Positions 24,010-52,179 of a stretch of 64,000 bases of DNA are shown in pieces. The position numbers and the translations under genes are program-made. Position 1 is the stretch's first letter; each line of letters starts with the position of its first letter. Source of the DNA: Pirellulales bacterium (GTDB lineage Bacteria > Planctomycetota > Planctomycetia > Pirellulales > PALSA-1355); NCBI GenBank assembly GCA_963733035.1, contig CAVTBU010000008.1, positions 456,424 to 520,423 of the forward strand. Direction: 5' to 3'. The notes under the pieces were generated by a model, which was not told where the DNA came from, searched no databases, and was given only the letters and a program-made list of their open reading frames with translations.

Positions 24010-24038
24010 TTGACGTTCAATTGTTCTGTTTTCATAAT
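24010..24038 (+). promoter_or_regulatory. sigma70-type promoter of the ROK/catabolic operon
   Basis: TTGACG-17 bp-CATAAT, about 45 bp upstream of the ROK start. Confidence 0.65.
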
Positions 24039-24082: not shown

Positions 24083-25308
24083 ATGCATCCTCGACCGCGT
24101 GAAACCAAGCTGGCCGCCAAGAAAAACGGAATTCTCAACGAGGTTTTCCGGCGCGGAAGCTGCTTGCGGTTCGATTTGGCGCGACGCTTGAATATCAACG
24201 CCACGATGGTCGGCCACTATGTAGAAGCCCTGGTAGCCGACGGGCTGTTGGTGGAAGGCGATCCGGCTGCGGCACCACGTGGGCGGGCGCCGCTGCACAC
24301 CAACCCCCGGCACGGCTGCTTTCTGGGGCTGGACTTCGAGGCACTGCGGGCGCGAGCCGTCTTGTGTGATTTTGCCGGCGAGGCGTTGCAGCAAAAAGAG
24401 GTCCAGTTCCGCTCCGGTATTTCGCGCGAGAGCGTGCTCAAGCAAGTCGTGGCCCTGGCCCAGCGGCTGGCCGAAAGGGCAGATCGGCCGCTGTTGTCGG
24501 TTGGTGTCGCCGCACCGGGACAGGTCGACTGCGCCAGTGGAAGAGTGCTGCACTATCGCTTGCTTCCCGACTTCGACCAGGTACCGGTGCGTGACCGCTT
24601 CGAAGCGGTGTTCGGCCCCAAGGTATTCGTCGAGGACAATATCCGCGCGGTGGCCTACGGCGAACTTCTGCGCGGCAGCGGGCAGGGAAACGAAAACTTT
24701 CTCTGCCTGGCCATTCGATCGGGAGTGGGCCTGGGAATCGTAATCGACGGCAATCTCTACTCCGGCACGAATTCGATGGCCGGGGAGGCGGGGTACTTTG
24801 TCTTTCCCACAGCCGAAGGTCCGCAGTTCGCCACGGATCTCGTTTCGGTGAAAGGTTTCGTTGCCTCGACGCTCAAGCTGATCAGATCGCGACAGTCTAC
24901 CGAGGCCCGCCGGCTGCTAGTGGCTAAAGGCGACGACCTGATGCTTGCCGAAGTTGTGGAGGCGGCCGAGGCAGGGGATCGCTTGTTGCGGCAACGCCTT
25001 GAGCAACTCGGCACGCACTTGGGCATGCTCGCCGCGAATCTGGCCAACCTGTTCGCCCCGGAAAAGATCGTGCTGACCGGCGAAGTGCCGAACTGCTCGC
25101 CGTTGGTGCGCCAGCGGATGGAGCGCGCGTTTCGCCAATTCACGCTACCGACGATCCTCACCACGGCCTACTTGGAAGACGGCAGCCTCGGGGGTTTCGC
25201 CGGCGCGCTGGCGCGGCCTGGTTGGGCTTTGCCAAGACGTTTCCCGCGGACGAGGAGGTGTTGATTCGGCAAGCGAACGAAAAACAGCAGGCCAAACAAG
25301 CTGGATGA
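24083..25308 (+). CDS. ROK-family transcriptional regulator; frameshift near 25210, corrected stop at 25308
   Basis: N-terminal HTH (RFDLARRLNINATMV), GVAAPG, VEDNIRA, GVGLG, AGEAG; shifted frame gives GAL-GAAWLGF. Confidence 0.85.
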
Positions 25309-25354
25309 GCACGAAACTCAAACCAATGCACGGCCGGCGAACGAGGGCAATGTC

Positions 25355-26017
25355 ATGAACTTGTTTCTAGATAGCGCGAAGGTTGACGAAATCCGGCACG
25401 CGCTCGAAATGTGGGACGTGGATGGCCTCACGACGAATCCGCGGCACATTCAAGCTGCTGGCAAACCGTTCCGCCGCGCGATTGCTGAAATCGCCGAACT
25501 ATTTGCCGGCACGAATAAGCCGGTCAGCGTCGAAGTGAATCCGCATCTGACCGACTGGCGCAAGATCGTCGCCGAAGGCGTTGAGTTGAGCAAGATCTCC
25601 ACGAACTTTGTGGTCAAAGTCGGGGCCAGCGAGAGCGGCTTTAAAGCTATCCGCGAACTGACCGCTCAGGGAATTCGCGTCAACGCGACGCTAATCTTTA
25701 CCGTCGCACAGGCATGGCACGCGGCCCGGGCTGGTGCGGCGTATATCAGCCCGTTTGTTGGCTGGAAGGAACAATACGGCGACGCTCCCGACACGCTGAT
25801 TCCCGATCTGCGGATGATGCTGGACGCCCACGGTTACGAAGCCCAGATCATCGCCGCGGCCATCCGCAACAGCCGACAAATCGCCGACGCCGCGACTGCC
25901 GGAGCGCACTGCGTAACCGCCAGACTGGCCGTCTATCAAGAGAGCTTCGCCAATCCTTACACCACCATGGGCGAGAAGATCTTTCAGAGCGCCTGGGACG
26001 CCACGCCAGAAAAGTAA
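25355..26017 (+). CDS. Transaldolase, sulfofructose-transaldolase (SqvA/SftT)-like
   Basis: FLDSA, TTNPRHI (R30), Schiff-base K88, SPFVGWKE (W137), AAIRN (R171). Confidence 0.8.
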   Translation: MNLFLDSAKVDEIRHALEMWDVDGLTTNPRHIQAAGKPFRRAIAEIAELFAGTNKPVSVEVNPHLTDWRKIVAEGVELSKISTNFVVKVGASESGFKAIRELTAQGIRVNATLIFTVAQAWHAARAGAAYISPFVGWKEQYGDAPDTLIPDLRMMLDAHGYEAQIIAAAIRNSRQIADAATAGAHCVTARLAVYQESFANPYTTMGEKIFQSAWDATPEK

Positions 26018-26072
26018 GTGAGCGGTTCGAAACGCGTCGGTTGTGAACTCGTCATTCAAAGGGAGACACGAA

Positions 26073-27551
26073 ATGAAAGCACACGACTTCTCACGACGCG
26101 AGTTCATCAAGACCAGCGCGGCGGCCGGGGCAGCTGCCAGTTTCCTCGAAGCACCGTCGCCAGCGCGGGCCGCCGATGCGAACCAGCGGCTGCGAATCGG
26201 CGTGATCGGCGCGGGGAACCGTGGTTTCAACACGCTCACCAAGACTCTGGTCCGACTGCGAGGTATGGGGCGAAATATCGATCTGGTGGCAGTCGCTGAC
26301 GTGTACAGCGTGCATCGCCAGCGGTTTGTCGACTTCGTCAAGGAGAAGACCAGCGTGACGCCGAGCACGTTCATTGACTATCGCGAGCTGCTGCAGGACA
26401 AGCGCGTCGATGCCGTCGCCATCGCCACACCCGATCATTGGCATGCCAAACAGACGCTCGACGCACTGGCCGCCGGCAAACCCGTCTACTGCGAAAAGCC
26501 GATGACGCACACCGTCGACGAGGCCAAGCGAGTCGTCGCGGCATGGAAATCGAGCGGACTCGCGATGCAGGTCGGCGTGCAATCGACCAGCTTGCCGGTC
26601 TGGGACATGGCCCGCGAGATGATCGATGCCGGCAAGCTCGGCAAAGTCGTGCAGTTTCAAACGGAGTGTGCCCGCAACGGCACGTTCGGCATGTCGCGGC
26701 ACAACGTGATCACCAAGGAAATGACGCCCGAAACGGTCGACTTTCGACGCTTCCTGGGAGTCGAGGAAGGATTGGCTCCGGAAATGCCGTTCGATCGGGC
26801 GACGTTCGGACAATGGCGCTGTTACTGGCCGTTCGGCTACGGCATGTACTCCGACCTGTTCGTACACCGCGTGACTGGCATGCTGAAGGCGACTGGATTG
26901 CGAATGCCGGGCCGCGTCGTCGGCGGCGGGGGAATCTTTCTCGAATACGACGATCGCGAAGTGGCCGACGTGGCCTCGATCATCGCCGACTTCCGCGAGG
27001 GGGTGCAGGGGCTGGTTAGCAGCACGATGGTCAGCGAGGAACTGAAGTTGGACCATCTCATCCGTGGCCACTACGGACTCTTGCGCTTCGACAAGAATTG
27101 TACCGGCGACAGCGGCAAGGGAACGTTCGAGTTCATCCCAGAACGGCCGCAAGTGACACTCGACAGCAAACTGACCCGCGAGAACTTCGAAGCCAAGGCG
27201 GAACACAATATCGTTACCACACACATGGGCAACTGGCTCGACGCGATCGACGCGGGCAAGCCCGCCATGGTCAACAATGATCCGGAACTGGCTGCCGCGG
27301 CCGTGACGCTGGTGAACCTGGCGGTCCGCAGCTATCGCGAAGGCAAAGTGTTTCATGTCGACGCCAGCGGCAACGTCAGCGACGGCAACGGCAGTTGGGC
27401 CGCCGGTTGGGAAAAAATGTCGAAGGAGAGGGCCAAGCCGCATCACGTGCCCGGCTGGGCGGCCGGTGATACCGGCAGCGTGTTGCGTCCGCCCGACTAT
27501 CAAAAACTTGCCGGCCCGTGGATCGATGGGAAACCGCCCGAGGCGTCATGA
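26073..27551 (+). CDS. Tat-exported Gfo/Idh/MocA oxidoreductase
   Basis: SRREFIK Tat motif, GVIGAGNRG, ATPDHWH, YCEKP. Confidence 0.88.
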   Translation: MKAHDFSRREFIKTSAAAGAAASFLEAPSPARAADANQRLRIGVIGAGNRGFNTLTKTLVRLRGMGRNIDLVAVADVYSVHRQRFVDFVKEKTSVTPSTFIDYRELLQDKRVDAVAIATPDHWHAKQTLDALAAGKPVYCEKPMTHTVDEAKRVVAAWKSSGLAMQVGVQSTSLPVWDMAREMIDAGKLGKVVQFQTECARNGTFGMSRHNVITKEMTPETVDFRRFLGVEEGLAPEMPFDRATFGQWRCYWPFGYGMYSDLFVHRVTGMLKATGLRMPGRVVGGGGIFLEYDDREVADVASIIADFREGVQGLVSSTMVSEELKLDHLIRGHYGLLRFDKNCTGDSGKGTFEFIPERPQVTLDSKLTRENFEAKAEHNIVTTHMGNWLDAIDAGKPAMVNNDPELAAAAVTLVNLAVRSYREGKVFHVDASGNVSDGNGSWAAGWEKMSKERAKPHHVPGWAAGDTGSVLRPPDYQKLAGPWIDGKPPEAS

Positions 27552-27620
27552 CGCGGAGTGCGGTTGGTCTGCGCTTCGTGGCTGGAGAATCGTCACTTGT
27601 AACCTGTTGCATACTGAGAA

Positions 27621-28856
27621 ATGGATATCAACGCCAACTTGACGGCCGAACGTCCCACTTTTGTCACGCACCTCGAGTGCGGTCTGAAACAGGACCGCTA
27701 CGAGCCGGATTGTCTGCAGGGTCTGTCAAAAGCCAATAGGCCCCTATTGGTGAAGTATGACTTGGACGCGCTCCGAGGTGCCGTGACCAAAAGTGAGTTG
27801 GCCTCGCGCCCGCCCGATCTGTGGCGGTATCGCGAGTTTCTGCCGCTTCGGCGTGCCGAGAACATCGTCAGTCTGGGCGAATGCCACACCCCGCTCATTC
27901 CACTGACGAAACTGAAGGCCGGCAGCGGGGAGCTATTCATCAAGGACGAAGGGCGACTTCCGACCGGCTCGTTCAAGGCCCGCGGTCTGTGCATGGCCGT
28001 TTCGATGCACAAGGAGTTGGGCGTCAAGAAGATCGCCATGCCCACCAACGGGAACGCCGGCGCGGCCCTGGCCGCCTACGCCACCCGCGCAGGCATCGAA
28101 AGCCATGTCTTCTGCCCGGAAGACACGCCAGAGATCAACGTCCGCGAAATCGCAGCCCAGGGGGCGAAGGTGTGGCGGGTCAACGGTCTGATTAATGACT
28201 GCGGCCGCATCGTCGGCCAGGGCAAGGAAACCATGGGCTGGTTCGACTTCTCGACGCTCAAGGAGCCGTATCGCATCGAAGGCAAAAAGACGATGGGTTT
28301 GGAACTGGCTGATCAATTCGGTTGGAACGTGCCAGACGTGATCTTTTATCCGACCGGCGGCGGCACTGGCTTAATCGGCATGTGGAAAGCGTTCGCCGAA
28401 TTGAAGGAGATCGGCTGGCAAACGGGCAAGTTGCCCCGTATGGTGGCCGTACAAGCGAGCGGCTGCGCGCCGATCGTCAAGGCCTACAACGAGGAGAGCG
28501 AGCACGCCGAGTTGTGGCAAAACGCACACACGGTCGCGGCGGGAATTCGCGTGCCGGTAGCGGTCGGCGACTTTCTCATTTTGCGTGCGGTGCGCGAGAG
28601 TGGCGGCTTTGCGACGGCGGTCGACGATGAAGCCATTCTGGCCGCCCGCGACGAAGTCGCCCAGCGCGAAGGCTTTTTGATGTGTCCCGAAGGAGCGGCA
28701 ACCTACGCAGCCTACAAGCAGGAACTCGCGAGCGGCCGCATCAGTCCCTCCGAGACGGCTGTTTTGTTCAATTGCGCGAGCGGTTTGAAATACGAACTGC
28801 CCCCCATGCCCCGGACGCTCGATTGCACACGGCCAGTTGACTACACGCAACTTTAA
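27621..28856 (+). CDS. Threonine-synthase-like PLP enzyme (fold type II)
   Basis: KDEGRLPTGSFKARG, PTNGNAG, EGKKTMG, YPTGGGTG, PEGAA. Confidence 0.85.
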   Translation: MDINANLTAERPTFVTHLECGLKQDRYEPDCLQGLSKANRPLLVKYDLDALRGAVTKSELASRPPDLWRYREFLPLRRAENIVSLGECHTPLIPLTKLKAGSGELFIKDEGRLPTGSFKARGLCMAVSMHKELGVKKIAMPTNGNAGAALAAYATRAGIESHVFCPEDTPEINVREIAAQGAKVWRVNGLINDCGRIVGQGKETMGWFDFSTLKEPYRIEGKKTMGLELADQFGWNVPDVIFYPTGGGTGLIGMWKAFAELKEIGWQTGKLPRMVAVQASGCAPIVKAYNEESEHAELWQNAHTVAAGIRVPVAVGDFLILRAVRESGGFATAVDDEAILAARDEVAQREGFLMCPEGAATYAAYKQELASGRISPSETAVLFNCASGLKYELPPMPRTLDCTRPVDYTQL

Positions 28857-28874
28857 AAAGACCCGCGAAAGGTT

Positions 28875-29636
28875 TTGATGTACGTACCACGAATCCACAG
28901 GTTGCTGTTGGTATTAGCGATGTTGCCGAACATCGCGGCGGCTGCCGAGGCGGCGTTTCCGGGCCAGCGTAGCGAGGAACAATTGCGGCGAGACGGTTTC
29001 ACGCCGCTGTTTGCTGGCAAGTCGCTCGACGCCTGGGACGTGAAACCCTGGCACGAAGGTCACTGGGTCGCGCACGATGGCGTGATCGACTACGACGGTA
29101 AGTCCGCAAACAAGCGTGGGCAGGACGCCTCTCTGTGGACCAGGCAGGACTTCGGTGACTGCGAGCTGTATGTCGAATGGCGATTGCCGGCCGAACCGGA
29201 AATGAAACCGCACCCCATCGTGCTCTACAACGGCGACTTCCTGATGCAGGAGGACCACCCGAGTCAGCGTGAGACGAGGATGCGGCGCGACGCCGGCGAC
29301 AGTGGTCTGTACTTTCGCGGCAGCACGAAGTGCCAGGCCAACATCTGGAGCCAAGAGCTCGGCTCCGGCGAGATCAACGGATACCGCACCGATAAGGGCA
29401 TGCCGCCCGAGGTCCGCCGCGCGTGCATTCCAATCAAGCAGGCCGATCGGCCGTTGGGCGAGTGGAATGCGTTTCTGATTACGCTGCGCGGAGACGGTAT
29501 GACCACCATGCTCAATGGCGAAACGGTGATCAACGTTCCTCATCTTCCCGGTTTGCCCGAGCGTGGTCCCATCGCCCTGCAGCACCATGGCGACCCGGCG
29601 CAGTTTCGACGGATTTGGATCAAGGAGCTGGATTGA
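28875..29636 (+). CDS. DUF1080 (3-keto-glycoside hydrolase/hydratase family) secreted protein
   Basis: Signal peptide, GFTPLF.GKSL, DSGLYFRG, GEWN, GPIALQHHG..FRRIWIKEL. Confidence 0.88.
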   Translation: MMYVPRIHRLLLVLAMLPNIAAAAEAAFPGQRSEEQLRRDGFTPLFAGKSLDAWDVKPWHEGHWVAHDGVIDYDGKSANKRGQDASLWTRQDFGDCELYVEWRLPAEPEMKPHPIVLYNGDFLMQEDHPSQRETRMRRDAGDSGLYFRGSTKCQANIWSQELGSGEINGYRTDKGMPPEVRRACIPIKQADRPLGEWNAFLITLRGDGMTTMLNGETVINVPHLPGLPERGPIALQHHGDPAQFRRIWIKELD

Positions 29637-29637
29637 A

Positions 29638-30696
29638 ATGACGGCAGCGGCGATTCGATTCGGCCTGATAGGTTTTGGGGCGTGGGGCAAGTGCCACGCC
29701 GAGGCCATCAAGAACACGACCGGCGCGGAATTGGTGGCGATTGCCGCCAAGTCGGAGGCGACCTGCGCCGCGGCGCGCGAGGCGTTTCCAGCGGCGGCGG
29801 TTTGCTCGGACTATCACCAGCTTCTAAGTCTTCAAAATGTGGACATCGTCGATATCGTGCTGCCGAGTTTCCTGCACCACGAGGTGGCCTCGGCGGCCCT
29901 CGAAGCCGGCAAGCACCTGCTGCTTGAAAAGCCAATGTGCCTGTCGGTTGAAGAGTGCGACGACTTGATTCGCCTCGCCAAGCGTAGCGAGCGGCTCGTG
30001 GCCGTCGGGCACGAGCTGCGCTTGTCGTCATTGTGGAGCAGGGTGAAACAAATGATTGACGAGGGGTACGTCGGCCGGCCGCAGTACGCGCTGGTCGAGT
30101 TGTCGCGCAAGCCGTACCGCCTCGGTGCCGACGGGTGGCGGTATGACATCGGTCGCGTGGGGAACTGGATCCTCGAAGAACCGATTCATTTTTTCGACCT
30201 GGCACGCTGGTACCTCGCTTCGGCCGGCGATCCGGTTTCGATTTATGCCGCCGCCAATTCGCGGCAGCCTGACCACCCTGAACTGCAGGACAACTTCAGC
30301 GCGATCGTGACGTTCGCTGGTGGCGCGTATGCCGTGGTTTCGCAGTCGCTGTCAATGTTCGAACACCATCAGACGGTCAAGGTGGCCGGTACCGAGGGAT
30401 CGCTGTGGGCCAGCTGGAGCGGCGCGATGGATCGCACGCGACACCCCACGTTTTCGTTGAAGGGCTCCAATGGGGATCAGGTTCACGAAATTCCAATTGA
30501 GAAGATCACCGGCGAAGTGTTCGAGCTGGAAGACCAGATGGCGATGCTGGTCAGTGCGATCCGCGATCACAGGCCGCTTGCGACGAGCGGCGAAGACGGC
30601 AGATGGTCCGTCGCCATGTGTGTTGCGGCCGAGCGTTCCGTCGAAACAGGGCAGCCCGTCTTGACGAGTGAAATGACCAAGGAACCTGTGGAATGA
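29638..30696 (+). CDS. Cytoplasmic Gfo/Idh/MocA oxidoreductase
   Basis: GLIGFGAWG, GKHLLLEKP, VGHELR, EEPIHFFD. Confidence 0.88.
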   Translation: MTAAAIRFGLIGFGAWGKCHAEAIKNTTGAELVAIAAKSEATCAAAREAFPAAAVCSDYHQLLSLQNVDIVDIVLPSFLHHEVASAALEAGKHLLLEKPMCLSVEECDDLIRLAKRSERLVAVGHELRLSSLWSRVKQMIDEGYVGRPQYALVELSRKPYRLGADGWRYDIGRVGNWILEEPIHFFDLARWYLASAGDPVSIYAAANSRQPDHPELQDNFSAIVTFAGGAYAVVSQSLSMFEHHQTVKVAGTEGSLWASWSGAMDRTRHPTFSLKGSNGDQVHEIPIEKITGEVFELEDQMAMLVSAIRDHRPLATSGEDGRWSVAMCVAAERSVETGQPVLTSEMTKEPVE

Positions 30697-31580
30697 AGGT
30701 ACAAGGCAGTAACAGCCCGGAGTGGATTTCGCGTCGCGGTTTCCTGGGCGGCGTCGTGGCCGCGACCGCCGGTTCCGCCATTACGGGCTTCTCGCTTCCC
30801 AGCCGTGCAACCGCGTCAAACGAGACGCCGCGCATCAAGAAGGCCGTCAAGTACCAGATGATCCAGGAAGATCTGCCGGTACTTGACAAATTTAAGCTGC
30901 TGGCCGACCTCGGCTTCGATGGCACGGAGATTCACGTCACGACGAAGATCGACCGCGACGAAGTCCGCCGGGCAATCGACGCGACCGGCGTGGTGGTGCA
31001 TGGATTCCTCAACAGCGACAAGCCCGACCTGAAGCACGCGATTGACAGCGCGAGGTTCTATGGCGGTACGAGTGTGCTGGTGGTGGCAGGACGGGTCGAC
31101 AAGGACCACGCTTACGACCAGGTTTATCGCCAGCAGCAGGAGCGAATCAAAGCCGCGCTGCCGTATGCTGAAAGCCAGGGAATCAAGCTCCTGATAGAAA
31201 ATGTGTGGAACAACTTCCTACTTAGCCCTCTGGAGATGGCCCGCTTCATCGATGAGCTGGATAGCCCGGCCATTGGCGCATATTTCGACGTTGGCAACGT
31301 CGTCCGGTTCGGTTGGCCGCAGCAGTGGATTCGCATTCTCGGCAAACGGATCGGCAAGCTCGACATCAAGGAATACAGTCGCCAGAAGCAAAACAACGAG
31401 GGCCCGAGAAAAGGATTTGCCGTCGAGATCGGCGAAGGAGATTGCGACTGGCCAGCAGTACGGCAGGCACTGGTCGACGTAGGTTACACCTCGGGCTGGG
31501 CCACCGCCGAAGTTCCCGGCGGCGACCGACAGCGGCTGGCCGACATCGCAGCGCGGATGGATCGCGTGCTGCGGTTATGA
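30693..31580 (+). CDS. Tat-exported sugar-phosphate isomerase/epimerase (AP_endonuc_2 TIM barrel)
   Basis: SRRGFL Tat motif; IENVWNNFL, FDVGN, LDIKEY, GEGDCDW, TAEV. Confidence 0.85.
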   Translation: MKVQGSNSPEWISRRGFLGGVVAATAGSAITGFSLPSRATASNETPRIKKAVKYQMIQEDLPVLDKFKLLADLGFDGTEIHVTTKIDRDEVRRAIDATGVVVHGFLNSDKPDLKHAIDSARFYGGTSVLVVAGRVDKDHAYDQVYRQQQERIKAALPYAESQGIKLLIENVWNNFLLSPLEMARFIDELDSPAIGAYFDVGNVVRFGWPQQWIRILGKRIGKLDIKEYSRQKQNNEGPRKGFAVEIGEGDCDWPAVRQALVDVGYTSGWATAEVPGGDRQRLADIAARMDRVLRL

Positions 31581-31655
31581 CCAACACGTGAAGTCGACGT
31601 GCCATAAATCGGCGTAATGCCATTTGTTTAATCTGCGGTAGACAGCCGGACCTGA

Positions 31656-32501
31656 ATGTCACGACTACTAGAAATCCGTGAGCTGTTGAAATTGTCGCCC
31701 GCTGAAATGCAGGAGAGGGCGGGCCGCCGGCTCAAAATCTGCCCCGACATCGACTCGCTGCACCAGCACTTTGCCGAAGCGATCGCCGCGGAAATCAAGA
31801 CGAACAATGCCCGGAACCGGCCGACGAAGTTGATCCTGCCGGTCGGACCGGTCGGGCAGTATCCAATTCTTGCCGAGATCGTCAACCGCGAGGATATCAG
31901 CCTTCGGCAGTGTTGGTTCTTCATGATGGACGAGCACTGCGACGACAACGGCATCGTGCTGCCGACCGAACATCCGCTCAGCTTTCGGCACGCGTTCAAC
32001 GAGCTGTTCGCAGTGCGAGTGAACGACGGCCTGATGGTTCCAGCGGAGCAAGTAATCTTTCCCGATCACCTGAACGTGCAACATCTAAAGGATCAGATCT
32101 CCGCCGCCGATGGCATCGACACAACCTACGGCGGCATTGGAATTCACGGCCACATTGCCTACAACGAGCCGGAACCGGGCGTTCGTCAGTCCGATCCCCG
32201 CCTCGTGTACCTGAACGACTTCACACGCACGATCAACGCCATCCGCGCACAAATTGGTGGCAATCTGGAAGGTCACCCGCGCAAGGGCATCACCCTCGGC
32301 ATGCGTCAACTACTGGGGGCGAAACGCATTCGTCTCTATTGCCGCAACGGCATCGCGCTCGATTGGGCCAACACCGTGCTGCGACTCGCGCTGTTCGGTC
32401 AGCCGGGCGATGACTATCCGGTCACGTATATCCGTGAGCACGAGGACTATGCCATCGTGACCGATGAAGACACCGCACGCACACCGCGTTTCGTAGTTTA
32501 G
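31656..32501 (+). CDS. Glucosamine-6-phosphate deaminase/isomerase-like protein
   Basis: MMDEH and GGIGIHGHIAYNEP catalytic motifs; phosphate loop reads LPVGPVGQY. Confidence 0.8.
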   Translation: MSRLLEIRELLKLSPAEMQERAGRRLKICPDIDSLHQHFAEAIAAEIKTNNARNRPTKLILPVGPVGQYPILAEIVNREDISLRQCWFFMMDEHCDDNGIVLPTEHPLSFRHAFNELFAVRVNDGLMVPAEQVIFPDHLNVQHLKDQISAADGIDTTYGGIGIHGHIAYNEPEPGVRQSDPRLVYLNDFTRTINAIRAQIGGNLEGHPRKGITLGMRQLLGAKRIRLYCRNGIALDWANTVLRLALFGQPGDDYPVTYIREHEDYAIVTDEDTARTPRFVV

Positions 32502-32533
32502 GGGCGCGGGATCAAGGGCTAGACCAAACAAAC

Positions 32534-33244
32534 ATGAGACTCAAATTTGCTGACGAACGCGTTCTGGCCATTGTTGCCCACCCCGATGACGCCGAGCTGC
32601 TTTGCGCTGGAACTCTGGCCCGGGCCAAGGCTGACGGCGCGTCAATTGGCATCTGCGTGCTCTGTCGCGGCGACAAGGGTCAGCCGGCGGCGCCAATTGA
32701 GAATCTGGCCGAGGTTCGCAATCGAGAGATGCAGGCGGCAGCCGAGCTCTTGGGCGTGCAAGTGCTCACCGCTGGGTTTGGTGACGGAGAGTTGTTTGAC
32801 TCCACCGAGGCCCGCAGAGCGGTCGTCGAGCTGGTACGGCAATTTTGCCCCACACTCGTACTGGCCCACGCGGCGAACGACTATCACCCAGACCATCGGG
32901 CTGCGTCCGAGTTAGCGGAAGCGGCATCGTGGTTTTGTGCGTCGGCGGGGCAGAAAACCGCGTCACCGCCTCTCGAAAAACCGCCGGCTCTGTGGTGGAT
33001 GGACACCGTGGAGATGATTGGGTTCGAACCGCATTTCTACGTCGACGTGACCGGATTCCTGGAACTCAAACGGCAGATGCTTCATTGCCACCAGAGCCAG
33101 CTGGCCCGTGGGGATGACGCTGACTTTTCGCCGCTCGAGGCCGTAATGATCCGGCAATGTGAAACCCGTGGCGCTCAGGCGGGAGTTCGGGCGGCCGAGG
33201 CATTTCGACAACACGAAGCTTGGAAACGGACGAGCGCATGGTGA
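32534..33244 (+). CDS. PIG-L/LmbE family N-deacetylase
   Basis: AHPDDAE, RNREM, DYHPDH, HQSQ, AEAF. Confidence 0.92.
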   Translation: MRLKFADERVLAIVAHPDDAELLCAGTLARAKADGASIGICVLCRGDKGQPAAPIENLAEVRNREMQAAAELLGVQVLTAGFGDGELFDSTEARRAVVELVRQFCPTLVLAHAANDYHPDHRAASELAEAASWFCASAGQKTASPPLEKPPALWWMDTVEMIGFEPHFYVDVTGFLELKRQMLHCHQSQLARGDDADFSPLEAVMIRQCETRGAQAGVRAAEAFRQHEAWKRTSAW

Positions 33245-34546
33245 ACGCAAGCGGCCCGCCGCCGGAATCGAATTTGCACGAACCCTGGTACCACGGCGTC
33301 AGTGGCTACCAGTGGCTCGTGTTGGCGATCGCCTCGGCGGGCTGGATCTTTGACGTCTATGAAGGCCAGATTTTCAACATTACCCGCAACCAAATGCTGT
33401 CTGACATCCTGGGCAGCGAAGGAGGCGATGTAAAGAAATACGGCGACATGTTCCTCGGCATCTTTCTGCTGGGTGGAACCGTGGGAGGACTGGCCGCGGG
33501 ATCATTGGCAGACCGTTTCGGTCGGCGGCCGATCATGGTCGTCACAATCTTGATGTATTCGCTCTTCTCCGGGCTCACCTACTTTGCAACCGAGCTTTGG
33601 CATGTCGCCAGCCTGCGGTTTCTAGTGGCGATGGGCGTTGGCGGCGAATGGGCAGTGGCGGCAAGTCTCGTCGCCGAGGTATTTCCAGCCCGGGCGCAGG
33701 CGCAAGCATCGGGCATCTTCCATGCCTCGAGTGTGCTGGGAACCTGGATGGCGGCCTTGGCCGGCATGGCCGTCGGCGCACAATGGCGGTATGCCTATCT
33801 GTTCGGCATCGTTCCAGCGCTGTTGGTGCTTTGGGTGCGTGCAAGTGTGCGCGAGCCGCGCAAGTGGCAGGAAACGAAAGCGCAGGCCGAATCCGCCAAC
33901 CGTGGTGGACAACTCGGAAGCTTTCGCGACCTGTTGCTGAATCCCGTCTGGGGACCTCGAGCGTTCCTGGGAATGGGATTGGCTGCCGTGGGATTGGGAA
34001 CGTTCTGGGCGGTGACCGTGGCGGGCCAGGATTTGGCGCGCGAGCTACTGGTTCGCGGCGGCGCAAGCTCCGAGGTCGTTGCCCAGCATGCAAAATTTGC
34101 TTATGGCATCGTGCAAACAACCGGCGGGGCCGTGGGCTTGCTGTCGTTTGGTCCCCTCTGCGCGGTTCGGGCGCCGGCGAACGTTCATCGTGATTCAATT
34201 GCTGGCGTTCCTTTTCGTCCCGATAACGTGTTTCCTGCCGCAAACCTATCGCGAACTGCTCTGGCTCTTGCCACCGTTTGGATTCCTGACGCTGGGCCTG
34301 CACGCGGGCTATGCGATCTACTTCCCGGAGTTGTTCCCCACGCATTTGCGGGCCACGGGAACCAGTTTCTGTTTCAACGGCGGACGCATCCTGGCCGTGC
34401 CGGTATTGTTTTTCTCCGGATGGCTCAAGGCGCGGGAAGGCATGGACCTGCGAGTCGCAATCTCGTCGCTGGGAGCGCTATTTCTCGTGGGTGTGGTGTT
34501 GATGCTGTTTCTACCGGAAACAAAAGGAAAAGAACTGCCTGAGTAG
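33238..34546 (+). CDS. MFS transporter, frameshift near 34160
   Basis: GSLADRFGRRP, GVGGEW; second ORF has FGRRR, PELFPTHLRATG, LPETKG. Confidence 0.88.
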
Positions 34547-34557
34547 GCAAGACGCCG

Positions 34558-35643
34558 ATGGACAATTGGACCCTCTTCATCACGATTGCCGTGGTTATCA
34601 CGGCCGCGGGCTTTGTGCAGAGTGCGATGGGCTTTGGCTACGCGATCGTGGCGCTGGCAATCCTGCCGCTGGTCATCGATATCCGCATGGCGAACATCGT
34701 GGTCTCGCTGAGCGTGATCTTGCCTTTGGGCGCTGCGGTATGGGCCTACCGCCACGAAATCGATTGGCCAACGATCGCTTGGTGCCTGACGGGTTCGGTC
34801 GTAGGGCTGGCATTCGGTTTAATCGTGTTTTCCACGATCGATGCCACCTGGCTGATGCGTGCAACCGGCGGCGTCATCTTTTTGCTGGCGCTCGATGGAC
34901 TTCGCACGCGACGCGACACCGAAACGCAACGGCAATTCTCCCACGGCTGGAGCGCCGTGGCCGGGGCGGCAGGCGGCGTGCTATCCGGGTCGATCGGCAT
35001 GGGCGGCCCGCCGATTGTCGCATTTGCCGCGCGGCAGACGTGGTCGCCGGTCCGCGTCAAAGCGTTCCTGACCAGCGTGGCATTGATTCTATCCGTGCTC
35101 AAGGGGGTGGGGCTCGCGGCGACTGGTTGGGTCGACCAGGCCGTCCTGTTTTATTCCGGGGCATCCATTCCGTTCGGTTTGGCAGGCAGCCACCTGGGCG
35201 TCGTTGCCTCACGAAACATGAACCCTCAACTCTTTCGCAAAATCACGATGCTGGTGCTTCTGCTGCTGTCGATCGGCATGATCGTTCGCGGGCAGCCGAA
35301 TGGCCCAGGTATCGATAAGGCGCAAAACACCCACGGTAAGTCACGCAGTTGGTGTGCTATCGAGAGCTCGGATGATGCCAAGCACAAGGAACATCCGAAG
35401 ATGACGGAAAGTGTTCGTCGAGCCTCGTACCATCAGTCCGACTGGCAGCGCCTGGAACCGGACAGCGACGAACAGCCATCGCAGGTACTCATGCCATTGG
35501 GCCACTCCCCAAGGGAACCCTGTGGGAAACGACCGCTGTCCCGGAACTTAGGGGCAAGCAATGCGCGTCGCGGAAATCTTGCTGGAACGAGAGCCGGCTG
35601 CCGTCGAGGAAGCCGATGTGATCGAGTACTACCTATAGGTTGA
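34558..35643 (+). CDS. TauE/SafE family sulfite/sulfonate exporter; last ~110 aa look non-homologous
   Basis: AAGFVQSAMGFG, GVLSGSIGMGGPP, about 8 TM segments. Confidence 0.8.
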   Translation: MDNWTLFITIAVVITAAGFVQSAMGFGYAIVALAILPLVIDIRMANIVVSLSVILPLGAAVWAYRHEIDWPTIAWCLTGSVVGLAFGLIVFSTIDATWLMRATGGVIFLLALDGLRTRRDTETQRQFSHGWSAVAGAAGGVLSGSIGMGGPPIVAFAARQTWSPVRVKAFLTSVALILSVLKGVGLAATGWVDQAVLFYSGASIPFGLAGSHLGVVASRNMNPQLFRKITMLVLLLLSIGMIVRGQPNGPGIDKAQNTHGKSRSWCAIESSDDAKHKEHPKMTESVRRASYHQSDWQRLEPDSDEQPSQVLMPLGHSPREPCGKRPLSRNLGASNARRGNLAGTRAGCRRGSRCDRVLPIG

Positions 35644-35789
35644 AAACGAATACTCGCCGATTCGCGGGTATCCAAGGCGACGAAGTGCAAGGCTTGTTAG
35701 ACTGAATTGAGCGTCGCAAGCGACGCAGATTCGCGGAATTCTCGGCCGAGATTCTGATGGCCCGTACGAACACATGTGGAAACAACCCG

Positions 35790-37236
35790 ATGAAGCGACT
35801 CGCTTGTTTGAACTCGCCAAGTGCCATGCTCCCGGCGTTTCTCTATGCATGCTTGGCTTGGTTCCTACCTGGTGTCGCATCGGCCGCTGACGCGCGGCCG
35901 CCGAATGTGGTGTTGATCCTCGCCGATGACCTGGGCTGGTCTGACTTGGGCTGCTACGGAGCCGACCTGCATGAAACGCCGCACATCGATCGACTGGCGC
36001 GGGACGGCATGCGTTTTACCAGCGCATACGCCGCTTCAATTTGCTCACCCACCCGCGCCGCGCTGATGACCGGCAAACATTACGCGCGGTTGCATATGAC
36101 CATCTGGTACGAAGGCTCGCTGGAGCCAGACCGCAATCACAAGCTGCGGCCGCCGCAGTCCGTGGGCAACCTGCCGCTGGACGAAGTGACGCTGGCCGAG
36201 CGACTGCACGAGGCGGGCTACCTCACGGCGCTGGTGGGTAAGTGGCACCTGGGAGACGCCGGTCACTATCCCGAGACGCAAGGCTTCGACGTCAACATCG
36301 GCGGCACGCACTGGGGCGCGCCGCAAACTTTCTTCTATCCGTACCGAGGTGATCGCCACTACGGCCGTGAAATGCGCTACGTGCCGGACCTTCCGTACGG
36401 AGACGAGGGCGAATACCTCACCGACCGGCTCACCGACGAAGCGCTCAAGGTCATCGACCGGGCCGGCGATCAACCGTTTTTCCTCTATCTGGCGCACCAC
36501 GCGGTCCACACGCCCATCGAGGGCAAGCCGAAGCTTGTCGAACACTACCGGCAGAAGCTTTCGCCAAAACTGCACCATCAAAATGCCACGTACGCCGCCA
36601 TGACGCACAGCCTCGACGACAGCGTCGGCCGAGTGCTCGCGAGGCTCGACGAGCGCAGGACTCGACGACAATACCTTGGTGATCTTTCTTTCCGACAATG
36701 GCGGGCACGTGATGCCGTTCGACGGCAAGGCCGTCACCAACAATTCGCCGTTGCGCAGCGGCAAAGGATCGCTCTATGAGGGGGGCGTGCGCGTGCCCAT
36801 GATTATCCGCTGGCCCGGCGTCACCACGGCTGGCAACGTGTGCGACGAACCGGTCTGCGTCATGGACCTGCTACCGACAATCGGCGTAGCCGTGCAACCC
36901 TCGCGGAACAAATCTTGGACCGCGCCCGACGGCACCAGCCTCGTGCCGCTGTTGAACGGCTCAGCGGCCACGCTCGATCGCGACGCACTTTATTTCCACT
37001 ATCCACACTACTATCCGACCACCACGCCCGCGAGCGCCATCCGCCAGCGCGACTGGAAGCTGCTTGAGTATTTCGAAGACGATCATGTCGAATTGTACAA
37101 CCTCAAGAACGACCTAAGTGAAGAGCACGACCTCGCCGGCGAACAATCCGAGCGCACCAGGCAATTGCGCGACAAACTACATGCCTGGCGCCGGCAGATC
37201 AACGCGCAAGTGCCGAGCTCAGCGACCGGCGGATGA
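35790..37236 (+). CDS. Formylglycine-dependent (S1) sulfatase, frameshift near 36658; start uncertain
   Basis: PNVVLILADDLG, CSPTRAALMTG, GKWHLG, SDNGG, GKGSLYEGGVRVP. Confidence 0.9.
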
Positions 37237-51100: not shown

Positions 51101-52179
51101 TCCTCACCCGTGGCGCAGCCAGCAACCCAGACCCGGATCGGCGCGTCGGCGGAGCGGCCCGCCAGAAGCCTTGGGAAGACGATCTGCTTAAGAGCTTCGA
51201 ATGTTTCCGGGTCACGGAAGAAGCTGGTCACTTGGATAAAGACATCATCGAACAAAGCCTGCAATTCAGCGGTATTCTCACGCAGATAGCGCAGATATTC
51301 CTCGATATTGTGCAGCCTGCAGAGCACCATGCGGCGTTGGATTCGCCGCCGCAGCGTGGGATGCTTGTAGTTTGCTAAGTCGACGCCAAAGGTGGTCGTC
51401 AGCAATCGCACCACTTTGCCAAACTGGTCCTCCTTAACTTTGCCAACGGCCGAGGGAACGGGTTCCTTCTCGTGGTTCGAATAGGGATGCCGTGCAATTC
51501 GCACCAACTCGGCGGCAATCTGGGCGGGCGGCAGTATAAAGTCGACGCACCCCGAAGCCACGGCACTGCGCGGCATGCCGTCATGTTGGGCGCTTTGGTC
51601 CTGCGCGAAGGCAATTCCGCCTTCACCCTTGACAGCCTTGAGCCCCAGCGTGCCGTCCGTACCGGTGCCCGACAGGATCACGCCGATGGCACGACTCTTT
51701 TGGTCCTCGGCCAGCGATCGCAGAAACCTATCGATCGGTAAATGTGGCGTGCGTGCGGTCGTGCGCGGCGTGAGGTGCAACACCCCATGCTCGATAGTCA
51801 AGTCGGCATTCGGCGGAATGATAACCACATGATTGGCGCACGCGGCGGCGCCATCGCTGGCCTCCTCGACGGGCAACGATGTCGCCTTGGACAGGATCTC
51901 GACGAGCGCACTGGGATGATGAGGATCAAGGTGCTGGATCAGCACGAACGCCATCCCGGAGTCAGATGGTAGTGATTCCAAGAGCGCTTTGACAGCTTCG
52001 AGGCCGCCGGCCGAAGAGCCAATGCCCACGATATAAGTTGGCCGGCCCAGAGCGGCATCCGTCGGCGCCGAAACGGCTTCGCCGGACGGCCCGCGCGATG
52101 CAGTAGCAGGAGCTTCCGACGGGTTTGGATCAGCAGAAACCGGAGTCGGTTGGTTTTTGTTTCTCCTTCGGACAGCCAT
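48122..52179 (-). CDS. CheB-CheR-coiled coil-PAS-histidine kinase fusion, frameshift near 49225
   Basis: GIGSSAGG and ILSGTGTDG (CheB); VTSFFRD, GCATGEE, SCRNLLIY (CheR); NEELQ heptads; PAS; shifted frame joins ...GQPSELILLAFDD to a PAS and HisKA_3 domain (QELHDGIGQEL, DDGKG). Confidence 0.85.

Follow-up and report, generated by a model that had tools for sequence, protein, structure and literature searches.

Which sugar, if any, is broken down by the products of 12 co-oriented genes lying on the + strand (24083–37236) of a 64,000-nucleotide stretch (the window) of a Pirellulales genome? The host is a soil planctomycete. A first-pass annotation had proposed a new sulfo-(amino)sugar pathway, in which an N-acetyl-6-sulfo-hexosamine is deacetylated and deaminated to 6-sulfofructose and then cleaved by a transaldolase. 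ORF calls, with families assigned through Pfam, NCBIfam and PDB, showed that the 12-gene run is real. That many of its genes are translationally coupled was an overstatement: one pair (Gfo2 and a TIM-barrel gene) overlaps by 4 nt, but other gaps measure 15–113 nt, and two further ORF overlaps hinge on the start codon chosen. As discussed below, the cluster probably specifies a way of degrading sulfo-sugars that has not been described in this form, because a known pathway would be entered and left through unusual enzymes.

An SF-type transaldolase and its clade

The 220-residue TAL_FSA transaldolase (25355–26017, +) matched PDB 8bc3, the solved BmSF-TAL, with 220 bits versus 141.5 bits for the ordinary transaldolase 1vpx. 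It carries W137, H31 and A169, positions that are R, L and S in the phylum's canonical small transaldolases (23/23). Trp was found at position 137 in 51/51 clade-A, 31/31 clade-B and 6/6 G188-group rows, versus Arg in all 23 canonical rows, this Arg being the phosphate-binding residue. A quick IQ-TREE phylogeny separated the SF-like group from canonical transaldolases (100% support) and gave 99% SH-aLRT support to clade A, which holds the window transaldolase and occurs mainly in Planctomycetota and Verrucomicrobiota; clade B, the classical clade, is from Chloroflexota/Actinomycetota. Bit scores, W137 and tree placement agree with the SqvA signature ascribed to this enzyme earlier. The run is likely a cluster for sulfo-sugars with an SF-type transaldolase at its core.

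Whether the cluster specifies a variant of transaldolase-dependent sulfoglycolysis (sulfo-TAL/SFT), in which the anionic 6-sulfo sugar is never phosphorylated, we judge evenly balanced, although it is the reading that we prefer. In such a variant, the transaldolase would move C1–C3 to glyceraldehyde-3-phosphate, giving fructose-6-phosphate and sulfolactaldehyde, a step for which homology argues well. Clade-A relatives in Opitutales adjoin an SftI-like isomerase (sole match NF048012, 161.8 bits, below the cutoff of 700), and at locus L071 a clade-A transaldolase accompanies an SqgA-like protein bearing the published Y136/R166/L170/K172/E189/H193 pattern; these neighbours are undoubtedly sulfoquinovose genes.

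Neighbouring genes recur around clade-A transaldolases

We counted neighbours within ≤10 kb of the transaldolase in 49 clade-A and 31 clade-B loci; many of these lie on truncated contigs (median 15.5 kb), so gene absences are soft. NagB-like genes were present in 22/49 clade-A loci, PIG-L genes in 17/49 and either one in 24/49, whereas both were absent from the classical loci (0/31 each), where SftI-like (25/31) and GH31 (13/31) genes were seen. Clade-A transaldolases also adjoined GabD-like aldehyde dehydrogenases (Aldedh, 20/49), ROK orthologs of 59–81% identity (14/49), ThrC-like orthologs of 69–82% identity (13/49), MFS transporters (12/49), Gfo2 (10/49), TAT-Gfo (10/49), sulfatases (9/49) and TauE (1/49). 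The co-occurrence of transaldolase, NagB-like, PIG-L and TauE genes that the first-pass annotation proposed to look for thus extends to the NagB-like and PIG-L genes but not to TauE. Neither TauE nor the sulfatases, which are not orthologous between loci, are conserved partners, and that annotation gave them too much weight.

Gene order in Kolteria novifilia Pan216 was ROK–TAL–Gfo2–TIM–TATGfo–NagB-like–PIG-L–MFS; Gimesia-type genomes had PIG-L←NagB-like beside TAL→sulfatase, and metagenome operons had ROK–KduI–Aldedh–TAL–ThrC–NagB-like–PIG-L. Every one of 15 metagenome loci with NagB-like homologs of 64–86% identity carried at least one other cluster gene, and 5 carried the transaldolase. Lack of synteny in other genomes had been set beforehand as refuting the proposal, a refutation that fails because the genes are syntenic in these genomes. 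The grouping is more than chance: the genome holds about 34 sulfatase-like and about 35 Gfo-like loci in its 6.65 Mb, and other genomes have this set of genes near transaldolases of the same clade.

The cluster has no GH31, SftI/SqvD-type isomerase, DUF4867, KduI-like cupin or close GabD-type aldehyde dehydrogenase, and tblastn (E ≤ 1e-10) with planctomycete/verrucomicrobial queries found none of the five in the whole 6.65-Mb, 92%-complete genome. The absences of GH31, SqvD-type isomerase and aldehyde dehydrogenase noted at the outset are therefore upheld for the cluster, although relatives do carry the dehydrogenase, as counted above.

Candidate periplasmic, uptake and regulatory functions

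Several products carry export signals. One Gfo/Idh/MocA protein (TAT-Gfo; 26043–27551, +; Pfam GFO_IDH_MocA and TAT_signal) has an SRREFIK motif and matched NF058561 with 116.7 bits, far below the cutoff of 750; it may be a periplasmic dehydrogenase remotely like glycoside 3-dehydrogenases. The xylose-isomerase-like TIM-barrel enzyme (30693–31580, +; Pfam AP_endonuc_2, 111.6 bits) has a TAT signal with an SRRGFLGG motif and a 76–77% identical ortholog in the Kolteria cluster. The DUF1080 protein (28875–29636, +; 3keto-disac_hyd, PF06439, 107.5 bits) has a Sec-type signal peptide, adjoins Gfo2 in L073, L077 and L106 also, and appears 3-keto-disaccharide-hydrolase-like. Together with the secreted sulfatase, these proteins could pre-process a sulfo-sugar conjugate in the periplasm. 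The product would be imported by the MFS transporter (33220–34542, +; Pfam MFS_1/Sugar_tr), whose best NCBIfam matches, all below cutoff, were aromatic-acid and sialate:H+ symporter subfamilies, resembling organic-anion:H+ symporters.

Cytoplasmic Gfo2 (29563–30696, +; Pfam Gfo/Idh/MocA), which probably starts near 29638, aligned over its full length with SqgA (PDB 8qc2, 79 bits, rank 6). Of the ArSqgA residues, R166, E189 and H193 have counterparts in Gfo2, whereas Y136 is replaced by L and K172 by G; Gfo2 is related to, yet distinct from, the GH188 NAD-dependent sulfoquinovosidase. Its orthologs often occur in the order Gfo2–NagB-like–PIG-L, and it may act on the same sugar as glycosidase or ketoreductase.

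The ROK regulator (24083–25264, +; Pfam ROK, 112.8 bits) is NagC/Mlc-like with an N-terminal DNA-binding extension, the NagC model aligning over residues 25–357, and would control the operon. Contigs of X1, a soil-metagenome run, and of X2 have an extra C behind 25209, at the 3′ end of this gene, and the C-termini of orthologs match the other frame (25210–25299); its C-terminus is probably mis-framed through an assembly indel at 25209.

A possible amino-sugar entry route

The NagB-like protein (31656–32501, +) had no Pfam match, scored 71.5 bits with TIGR00502 (cutoff 236.9) and matched NagB entries of the PDB (2bkv, E 1.6e-12). Across 38 family members, the T-G-(G/S)-T phosphate loop is lost (PVG--P instead of PTG(S/G)TP) and Trp replaces the NagB Lys; the DE(H/Y) and GHxxxNEP catalytic motifs are kept. 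The two canonical NagB proteins of the genome (contigs C10 and C6) retain both loop and Lys; NagB Lys208 and the Thr loop belong to the phosphate site. The anion site thus looks rebuilt, which agrees with an anionic substrate that bears no phosphate and with the lack of a kinase, and lends support to the kinase-free logic first proposed.

Next to it, the PIG-L/LmbE-family zinc deacetylase (32534–33244, +; Pfam PIG-L, 105.2 bits; BshB1 model, 135.5 bits, below 182.5) has an AHPDD motif. In our scheme, PIG-L and NagB-like proteins would turn a 2-acetamido/2-amino 6-sulfo-hexose into a 6-sulfo-ketose, the least certain step. Such kinase-free amino-sugar entry is plausible because the NagB-like protein keeps its catalytic residues without the phosphate loop and with Trp for Lys; we hold it tentatively, at slightly less than an even chance.

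The NagB-like protein could instead be an SQ-to-SF isomerase. The substrate would then be ordinary sulfoquinovose or its glycosides, isomerised to sulfofructose without deamination; Gfo2 and/or the periplasmic Gfo–TIM–DUF1080 set would replace the sulfoquinovosidase, and PIG-L would be accessory or unrelated. NagB chemistry runs through aldose–ketose isomerisation and, because the tblastn search of the genome brought up neither an SftI-like nor a KduI-like isomerase, the NagB-like protein is its sole candidate ketose-forming enzyme. The SqgA-like and SftI-like neighbours of verrucomicrobial clade-A transaldolases, and the three residues that Gfo2 has in common with SqgA, point the same way, as does a search of a literature library under three spellings, which found no mention of natural sulfoquinovosamine; that its N-acetyl form is likewise unnamed there weighs against the amino-sugar entry. 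However, PIG-L joins the NagB-like gene in 15/22 clade-A NagB-like loci and 9/15 metagenome loci, NCBIfam includes a model, NF002557, derived from a protein in which NagB-like and deacetylase parts are fused, and no job is known for a deacetylase in plain sulfoquinovose catabolism. Seven loci (L058, L068, L073, L079, L106, L146 and L147) hold both a KduI-like isomerase candidate and a NagB-like gene, which argues against redundancy of the two. In favour of the isomerase reading, distant NagB-like homologs (48–61%) without PIG-L adjoin a split transketolase; others of them adjoin a GH4 glycosidase and FGGY kinase, or Amidohydro_2. Because of this co-occurrence and these homologs, an N-acetylated amine is not a necessary substrate for the NagB-like protein. 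On balance, we consider an ordinary sulfoquinovose substrate unlikely.

A putative sulfur-eliminating lyase

For the exit from the preferred amino-sugar scheme, the PALP/ThrC-like PLP enzyme (27621–28856, +) is the candidate. It scored 639.8 bits with NF006050 and 161.5 bits with TIGR00260 (cutoff 167.1), versus 219.2 bits with TIGR00260 for the canonical thrC on contig C10; by these models it is a threonine synthase paralog, not the housekeeping enzyme. The first-pass annotation had placed a threonine-synthase-like gene in the run but overlooked its recurrent, sulfur-linked partnership: besides the 13 clade-A loci above, L068 has AT←PIG-L←NagB beside ROK–KduI–Aldedh–TAL–ThrC–SerA-like DH–RidA, Gimesia-type L135 has MFS–ThrC-like–SerA-like DH–MFS–TauE, and Opitutales loci combine ThrC-like and SftI-like genes with a YeiH-type putative sulfate exporter. 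The SerA-like dehydrogenase matched TIGR01327 with 334 bits. Because SerA-like dehydrogenase, aminotransferase, RidA and TauE/YeiH exporters adjoin it elsewhere, elimination of sulfite is the probable reaction; a sulfur-eliminating lyase, for sulfite or sulfate, has in our estimate as much chance of being right as wrong. In favour, PF00291 also includes CuyA, the cysteate sulfo-lyase already known; against, a different Bilophila 'threonine synthase' had no cysteate sulfo-lyase activity (both PMC11193023).

Judging from ortholog contexts, the C3 sulfonate would become cysteate through oxidation and transamination, for which this locus does not encode the enzymes; the ThrC-like enzyme would eliminate sulfite from cysteate, giving pyruvate and ammonia, and TauE would export the sulfite. 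The feeder enzymes appear to be missing here, because no ortholog of SLA dehydrogenase could be recognised in the genome (38% identity at best), while the L068 SerA-like dehydrogenase and aminotransferase have their closest homologs, at only 37–40% and 47% identity, on other contigs. By Pfam (TauE, 101.3 bits, residues 11–241), the TauE gene (34558–35643, +) would encode a TauE/SafE-family sulfite/organosulfonate exporter, with an odd Arg-rich tail of about 110 residues; PMC7491151 describes a TauE-type exporter in the classical Bacillus cluster. TauE and YeiH-type exporters fit sulfonate and sulfate-ester substrates alike.

The sulfatase and sulfate-ester substrates

The last gene encodes an S1 sulfatase with a signal peptide (35757–37236, +; Pfam Sulfatase and SGSH_C on two pieces), split into two overlapping ORFs (35757–36779 and 36676–37236) by a shift of frame near 36657. 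This shift probably stems from an indel in the assembly, because a near-identical soil-metagenome contig (X1, depth 3.6) has one base fewer exactly at 36657.

GlcNAc-6-sulfate is known to be released intact from glycans of the mucin or keratan type, and sulfate might replace phosphate throughout: GlcNAc-6S would yield GlcN-6S, fructose-6-sulfate and, through the transaldolase, glyceraldehyde-3-sulfate, which relatives would oxidise and transaminate to O-sulfoserine for sulfate elimination by the ThrC-like enzyme. Microbial production of free 6-sulfo-GlcNAc has been documented (PMC10570127 and PMC11659886), and SerA-like and ThrC-like proteins are paralogs of phosphate-ester enzymes. Although there are only about 34 sulfatase loci genome-wide, sulfatases recur in several lineages beside the transaldolase (in the window, the nine clade-A loci and L154) and ThrC-like genes (L136, L139, L141 and L142), and pocket-adjacent position 167 is Ala in 50/51 clade-A rows versus Val in 31/31 classical-clade rows. 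Nevertheless, the remaining pocket residues of clade A are those of sulfonate-specific BmSF-TAL, and SqgA-like and SftI-like genes, both of the sulfonate type, occur with clade-A transaldolases. Secreted, and outside the GlcNAc-6-sulfatase subfamily, the adjacent sulfatases are nearest carrageenan/aryl sulfatases (243 bits to 6prm versus 125 to 5g2v); those of the window, Gimesia (only 35% identity) and L055 are not orthologs. We regard a sulfate-ester substrate as improbable.

That no single pathway exists, the run being an ordinary GlcNAc regulon beside unrelated oxidoreductases and a spare transaldolase and threonine synthase, is very improbable: ROK, NagB, deacetylase and MFS are classical amino-sugar regulon components, planctomycete genomes are rich in Gfo (here about 35 loci), TIM, DUF1080 and sulfatase genes, and the exact 12-gene order was not repeated among the other loci examined, but the same families re-assort around clade-A transaldolases in two phyla and in 0/31 classical loci, the transaldolase and NagB-like protein both lack phosphate-site residues, and the genome retains two ordinary transaldolases elsewhere, besides its two canonical NagB proteins and canonical thrC.

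A co-oriented cluster around a sulfofructose-type transaldolase

The ORF listing of the window held an unbroken, co-oriented run of genes at 24083–37236 (+ strand), for which a variant form of transaldolase-dependent sulfoglycolysis is the best interpretation. Searches of Pfam, NCBIfam and the PDB assigned its genes, all on the + strand, to a NagC/Mlc-like ROK protein, a TAL_FSA protein of 220 aa, a Gfo/Idh/MocA enzyme with a TAT signal (TAT-Gfo), a PALP enzyme of the threonine-synthase branch (ThrC-like), a DUF1080 protein, a second Gfo/Idh/MocA enzyme (Gfo2), a xylose-isomerase-like TIM barrel with a TAT signal, a NagB-like protein, a PIG-L deacetylase, an MFS transporter, TauE and a sulfatase. 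These assignments and the ORF listing bear out the 12-gene run described in the first-pass annotation. Upstream lie genes for DUF1571, an acyl-CoA synthetase and 2-oxoacid dehydrogenase, and downstream one for a Ser/Thr kinase–WD40 protein; both flanks are on the opposite strand and unrelated. Judged by their N-termini, TAT-Gfo, the TIM enzyme, DUF1080 and the sulfatase are predicted to act outside the cytoplasm, and the transaldolase, ThrC-like, Gfo2, NagB-like and PIG-L proteins within it. Scans for promoter-like sites (2 versus 3.6 expected) and terminator-like sites (19 versus 15.1 expected) gave nothing beyond chance; one 10/12 promoter-scan match lay at 24010–24038, upstream of ROK.

The transaldolase has the TAL_FSA fold (PF00923, 140.5 bits), and its Schiff-base lysine, K88, was invariant in 111/111 rows of an alignment of small transaldolases that includes three duplicate rows. 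Its best PDB matches were the Bacillus megaterium sulfofructose transaldolase (SF-TAL) structures 8bc3, 8bc4 and 8bc2, at about 220 bits, whereas in the same search ordinary small transaldolases reached at most 141.5 bits (1vpx) and FSA at most 91.5 bits; identity to the B. megaterium enzyme was about 49% by a hand count of the HMMER midline. Position 137 of the window protein is Trp in every row of clade A (51/51; the clade of the window, mainly Planctomycetota and Verrucomicrobiota), of clade B (31/31; classical sulfo-TAL loci) and of a third group (6/6), and Arg in 23/23 canonical transaldolases of the phylum. The same split recurs at other sites, with His31 in SF-like enzymes versus Leu, and Ala169 in SF-like versus Ser in canonical enzymes. 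The resulting pocket pattern of R30, W137, A169 and R171 is that of the B. megaterium SF-TAL alignment and of all SF-like rows (R or K at 30); this pattern, with W137 in place of the phosphate Arg, is presumed to form the sulfonate pocket.

In a quick IQ-TREE analysis of 108 rows, the SF-like group, within which the window falls, was split from the canonical enzymes with 100% SH-aLRT support. Clade A (51 rows, 99% SH-aLRT) holds the window and comprises Planctomycetota, Verrucomicrobiota nested inside them, and one Gemmatimonadales MAG. The bit scores (220 for 8bc3 versus 141.5 for 1vpx), the tree position and the pocket pattern thus support the SqvA signature first noticed in this protein, and the evidence for the transaldolase step is good. 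By analogy with the SF-TAL class, the enzyme is predicted to turn over sulfofructose, GAP being the acceptor. The MAG labelled Gemmatimonadales (locus L092) carries its clade-A transaldolase with an aldehyde dehydrogenase and an MFS gene, and reflects either lateral transfer or a binning error.

A housekeeping role for the cluster transaldolase was rejected, as the genome of the window has two further, ordinary transaldolases. One of these, a long enzyme of 389 aa, is followed by phosphoglucomutase/phosphomannomutase (window 61130–63786) and is likely the pentose-phosphate copy.

Gene neighbourhoods of clade-A and clade-B transaldolases

A one-genome-per-species scan yielded 80 loci, 49 of clade A and 31 of clade B (Chloroflexota and Actinomycetota), which we searched locally with tblastn, using as queries every cluster protein and further neighbours met in the process, and counting co-occurrence within at most 10 kb. 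With median locus lengths of 15.5 kb (clade A) and 17.5 kb (clade B) and many truncated contigs, absences carry limited weight.

NagB-like genes accompanied the transaldolase at 22/49 clade-A loci and PIG-L at 17/49, one or the other being present at 24/49; neither occurred at any of the 31 clade-B loci. The same held (0/31 in clade B) for a GabD/SSADH-like aldehyde dehydrogenase (20/49 in clade A), ROK (14/49), MFS (12/49), Gfo2 and TAT-Gfo (10/49 each), a KduI/IolB-like cupin and a sulfatase (9/49 each), RidA (6/49), an aspartate-type aminotransferase (3/49) and TauE (1/49). ThrC-like genes were found at 13/49 clade-A loci and 1/31 clade-B loci, and SerA-like dehydrogenases at 4/49 and 2/31. 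Genes for a YeiH-type exporter (5/49 versus 6/31), an SftI-like isomerase (4/49 versus 25/31), an SqgA-like protein (1/49 versus 6/31) and GH31 (0/49 versus 13/31) were more frequent in clade B. Of the co-occurrence proposed in the first-pass annotation, the association of the transaldolase with NagB-like and PIG-L therefore stands; TauE was present at one of the 49 clade-A loci.

Synteny was found in other genomes. The cultured Kolteria novifilia Pan216 has the order ROK–TAL–Gfo2–TIM–TATGfo–NagB-like–PIG-L–MFS, with a KduI-like gene opposite. Of 401 genomes sampled from the phylum, only that of the window and three of one genus had transaldolases at least 70% identical; these three complete genomes, which group with Gimesia MAGs on the tree, carry the four-gene core, the local order being PIG-L←NagB-like, TAL→sulfatase→unknown. 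The isolate Maioricimonas sp. JC845 has kept the transaldolase and a NagB-like gene. A third planctomycete lineage of another family (genome G188) encodes a transaldolase 47% identical in a textbook sulfo-TAL cluster (locus L040, G188:C1:2871000–2890999) with GH31, DUF4867, an SftI-like isomerase, a TRAP transporter, a Mem_trans exporter, an SLA-reductase-like gene (SLA, sulfolactaldehyde), Dak1/Dak2, Fe-ADH (glycerol dehydrogenase) and LacI.

Three minor features of these neighbourhoods are recorded here. An Opitutaceae MAG (locus L071) has ROK, TAT-Gfo, Aldedh, TAL, RidA, GlpD-like, SqgA-like and SSF transporter genes, with no recognisable sulfoquinovose isomerase within 20 kb. In the Verrucomicrobiota locus L068, a gene for a 23S rRNA intervening-sequence protein (PF05635; 9609–9965) separates the aldehyde dehydrogenase gene from that of the transaldolase. 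At two Pirellulaceae-type loci, L055 (12267–15314) and L059 (11334–14405), a protein of about 1000 aa with DUF7133, HEAT and cytochrome c parts comes right after NagB-like.

A NagB-like enzyme with a rebuilt anion site

The NagB-like protein had no Pfam match and scored 71.5 bits against TIGR00502, far below the cutoff of 236.9; a PDB search matched it to B. subtilis NagB (2bkv, E 1.6e-12). Its family shares the NagB catalytic motifs D-E and G-H-x-x-x-N-E-P but reads PVG--P (PVG--PVG in the window protein and all aligned family members) where NagB reads P-T-G-(G/S)-T-P, a lost loop that we take to be the phosphate-binding one. The window protein and all aligned family members also have Trp where canonical NagB has Lys, presumably Lys208 of E. 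coli NagB. That Lys is kept in solved enzymes and in the genome's canonical NagB on two other contigs, C10 and C6; the TGST loop was seen in the C10 protein, and the C6 fragment starts downstream of it. The rebuilt site mirrors the Arg-to-Trp change of the transaldolase, and it argues against a phosphorylated substrate, in keeping with the absence of a kinase.

NagB-like homologues 67–81% identical were numerous in metagenomes (among the best 120 of 1904 matches) and sparse in species genomes (16/401 at E ≤ 1e-30). All 15 metagenome loci examined with 64–86% identical homologues hold at least one other cluster gene (transaldolase at 5, PIG-L at 9, Gfo2 at 5 and aldehyde dehydrogenase at 5), and two of the 15 have an operon ROK–KduI–Aldedh–TAL–ThrC–NagB-like–PIG-L. 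More distant homologues (48–61%) lie away from the transaldolase in four other planctomycete genomes. At loci L043 (1034–4889) and L044 (8493–12698), a NagB-like gene (54–61%, same Trp) adjoins split transketolase subunits and a DASS anion symporter, an arrangement that could be the cluster's equivalent built on transketolase, as in sulfo-TK; other distant homologues adjoin Amidohydro_2 genes, or a GH4 glycosidase and an FGGY kinase.

The PIG-L protein (PIG-L/LmbE family, CE14; PF02585, 105.2 bits) carries the AHPDD metal/catalytic motif at its N-terminus and scored 135.5 bits against the BshB1 equivalog, below the cutoff of 182.5. Elsewhere in the genome, a second, distant NagB-like stretch (28% identical) is followed directly by a PIG-L-like one (31% identical; C5:367456–368941), a pair that may be of the fused NagB–LmbE type described by NCBIfam NF002557.

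Like GlcNAc-6-phosphate catabolism (NagA, NagB and NagC), the proposed route would deacetylate its substrate, then deaminate and isomerize it into a fructose derivative, with a regulator of the ROK type in control. Unlike it, the cluster has a PIG-L/LmbE deacetylase rather than NagA and has neither kinase nor PTS, and its product would pass to a sulfo-type transaldolase.

A threonine-synthase paralogue and its proposed role in sulfur removal

The ThrC-like protein scored 639.8 bits against NF006050 (cutoff 303) and 161.5 against TIGR00260, below the cutoff of 167.1, and it has the PLP lysine motif SFKxRG. Because a separate ORF on C10 passes TIGR00260 (219.2 versus 167.1), the cluster protein is a paralogue; its identity as the genome's thrC was rejected on this ground and because sulfo-sugar and sulfonate genes accompany the cluster copy.

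Orthologues at least 69% identical occurred in 12 further genomes, one of them partial, in the 401-genome phylum sample. Far from the transaldolase locus of its genome, the Gimesia-type locus L135 (7584–14041) has the order MFS–ThrC-like–SerA-like dehydrogenase–MFS–TauE and has the look of a unit for taking up and desulfonating C3 sulfonates. In one planctomycete genus (L139, 4654–12126; also L141 and L142) the ThrC-like gene (70–71%) is flanked by two sulfatases and has an FGE-sulfatase gene upstream of it. Locus L068 reads aminotransferase←PIG-L←NagB-like, then ROK–KduI–Aldedh–(23S IVP)–TAL–ThrC-like–SerA-like dehydrogenase–RidA, and in Opitutales the gene accompanies an SftI-like isomerase (NF048012 its sole match), a TRAP transporter and a YeiH-type putative sulfate exporter.

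These contexts would supply the steps sulfolactaldehyde → sulfolactate → sulfopyruvate → cysteate → pyruvate + sulfite, with RidA quenching the enamine. They recall sulfolactate/cysteate mineralization in that ThrC-like orthologues adjoin a 2-hydroxyacid dehydrogenase, an aspartate-type aminotransferase, RidA and sulfite/sulfate exporters. CuyA, the known cysteate lyase, is also a PF00291 enzyme according to the available text of PMC11193023; unlike it, the candidate lyase falls in the threonine-synthase branch and not in the CuyA/D-cysteine-desulfhydrase branch. The same text describes a different ThrC-annotated protein, from Bilophila, as inactive on cysteate, and for this reason we put forward the lyase role as a hypothesis. 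Together with TauE (PF01925, 101.3 bits), the ThrC-like enzyme probably handles sulfur removal and export. By tblastn, the genome of the window had no close orthologues of the feeder enzymes (best aldehyde dehydrogenase 38%); its SerA-like dehydrogenase and aminotransferase homologues were only 37–47% identical and lay elsewhere. No link of threonine-synthase-like enzymes to sulfoquinovose catabolism was found in the literature searched.

Oxidoreductases and sulfatases

Gfo2 aligned over its full length with the GH188 sulfoquinovosidase 8qc2 (79 bits, rank 6 in the PDB search). The signature residues of ArSqgA are given as Lys107, Tyr136, Arg166, Leu170, Lys172, Glu189 and His193 in the available text of PMC10755693. 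The full pattern was present in Gfo proteins of GH31-less classical loci and in one of L071. Gfo2 and nine orthologues share Arg166, Glu189 and His193 with SqgA (PDB 8QC2, 8QC6) but have Leu at 136 and Gly at 172; Gfo2 thus lacks two of five aligned side-chain signature residues (Y136 and K172), and it is 23–26% identical to SqgA-like proteins of classical loci. On current evidence, we regard Gfo2 as a relative, not a member, of GH188 SqgA. The exported enzymes (TAT-Gfo, the TAT-TIM barrel and the secreted DUF1080 protein) presumably recall the oxidative 3-keto-glycoside cleavage system, the one computed pointer to this likeness being a weak NF058561 match.

The window's sulfatase, that of the Gimesia-type genomes (35% identical to it) and that of L055 are not orthologues, and all are secreted. 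Adjacent sulfatases were dropped as a specific pointer to GlcNAc-6-sulfate: in the PDB search the Gimesia-type enzyme was nearest to carrageenan/aryl sulfatases (243 bits, versus 125 to GlcNAc-6-sulfatase). With about 34 sulfatase loci in the 6.65-Mb genome, chance direct adjacency is roughly 1% per flank, and the repeated association may therefore be meaningful, without identifying the substrate.

Relation to known pathways and a proposed route

The reference sulfo-TAL/sulfo-SFT systems of Bacillus aryabhattai SOS1, B. megaterium DSM 1804 and Eubacterium rectale comprise an SqvA/SftT transaldolase, an SqvD/SftI isomerase, the GH31 enzyme SftG, an SLA dehydrogenase or reductase and a TauE-type exporter; a TauE-type gene in the B. 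aryabhattai cluster appears in the available text of PMC7491151. The present cluster shares with them the transaldolase subfamily and its Trp/Arg pocket pattern, the lack of a sugar kinase and a TauE-family exporter, and its relatives share a GabD-like aldehyde dehydrogenase. Unlike them, it has ROK, NagB-like and PIG-L, two Gfo enzymes, a TIM barrel, DUF1080 and ThrC-like.

The absence of GH31, an SqvD-type isomerase and an aldehyde dehydrogenase from the cluster was confirmed, and tblastn of the whole genome agreed. No GH31 or true GH188 sulfoquinovosidase was found, the nearest SqgA-like match in the genome being Gfo2 (21% identity), and DUF4867 was found by tblastn in neither locus nor genome. 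The locus has no SLA dehydrogenase or reductase, and the best matches in the genome were 33–38% identical to the clade-associated Aldedh and 28% to an SLA-reductase-like query. With two SftI/SqvD isomerase queries, the genome gave no tblastn match at E ≤ 1e-10; the NagB-like enzyme may be a plain sulfoquinovose isomerase. The tight linkage of NagB-like with PIG-L and its rebuilt anion site make entry through deacetylation and deamination by this pair, as the first-pass annotation proposed, the most economical reading of the sequence data.

Few organic sulfur pools exceed sulfoquinovose and sulfated amino sugars in size, and Planctomycetota and Verrucomicrobiota play a major part in breaking down the glycans of algae and hosts. 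One joint reading, to which we give rather low credence, is a kinase-free route in these two phyla in which a sulfo group replaces phosphate throughout. N-acetyl-6-sulfo-glucosamine would be deacetylated by PIG-L, deaminated by the Trp-rebuilt NagB paralogue and cleaved by the SF-type transaldolase, and the C3 sulfo-fragment would be mineralized by the threonine-synthase paralogue, which would then represent a novel class of lyase that eliminates sulfite or sulfate. The substrate would be N-acetyl-sulfoquinovosamine, a natural sulfonate as yet undescribed, or GlcNAc-6-sulfate used without desulfation. The literature searched yielded no naming of natural sulfoquinovosamine; free GlcNAc-6-sulfate is a known microbial product (available text of PMC10570127 and PMC11659886).

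If true, this route would extend the transaldolase pathway to Planctomycetota and Verrucomicrobiota. In its available text, a 2026 review (PMC12890257) places that pathway in Firmicutes, Thermotogae and Chloroflexi only, and planctomycetes are not mentioned in the available portions of PMC12890257, PMC13436972, PMC13372026 and PMC7491151; nor were the two phyla listed for sulfoglycolysis in the accessible text of the reviews searched. No paper linking either phylum, or NagB-like/PIG-L pairs, to sulfoquinovose catabolism was found in the literature searched. The route would also provide a new entry, possibly a new natural sulfo-amino sugar or sulfatase-free use of GlcNAc-6-sulfate, assign a function to a widespread NagB-like family in which Trp replaces Lys at the anion site, and make a paralogue annotated as threonine synthase by the NCBI equivalog model a candidate new desulfonating enzyme. 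Cultured carriers raise the interest, as Kolteria novifilia Pan216 has the same gene set and the hypothesis is directly testable.

Assembly and other features of the window

The sulfatase is represented by two ORFs, with a frame switch near 36657 within the conserved LDDNTLVIFLSDNGG stretch. We compared the window with contigs of four soil-metagenome runs, which cover it in part; in run X1, 23 of 26 aligned contigs were at least 99% alike to the window. A near-identical X1 contig (one contig, depth 3.6) lacks one base exactly at 36657, and contigs of both X1 and a second run, X2, have an extra C behind 25209, the C-termini of ROK orthologues being in the other frame from 25210 onward. Because near-identical metagenome contigs differ at both positions, and orthologue frames at the ROK C-terminus, both breaks are most likely assembly indels, and the assembly seems to carry indel errors. 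The TauE ORF runs about 110 residues past its domain (35308–35643) in an Arg/Ser-rich tail resembling out-of-frame sequence, for which a further indel or a late stop may account; an X2 contig from a relative has insertions at 35550 and 35737. Elsewhere in the window, at 49084–52557 (− strand), a CheB–CheR fusion of 1157 aa with PAS domains adjoins a PAS histidine kinase and a LuxR-type response regulator.
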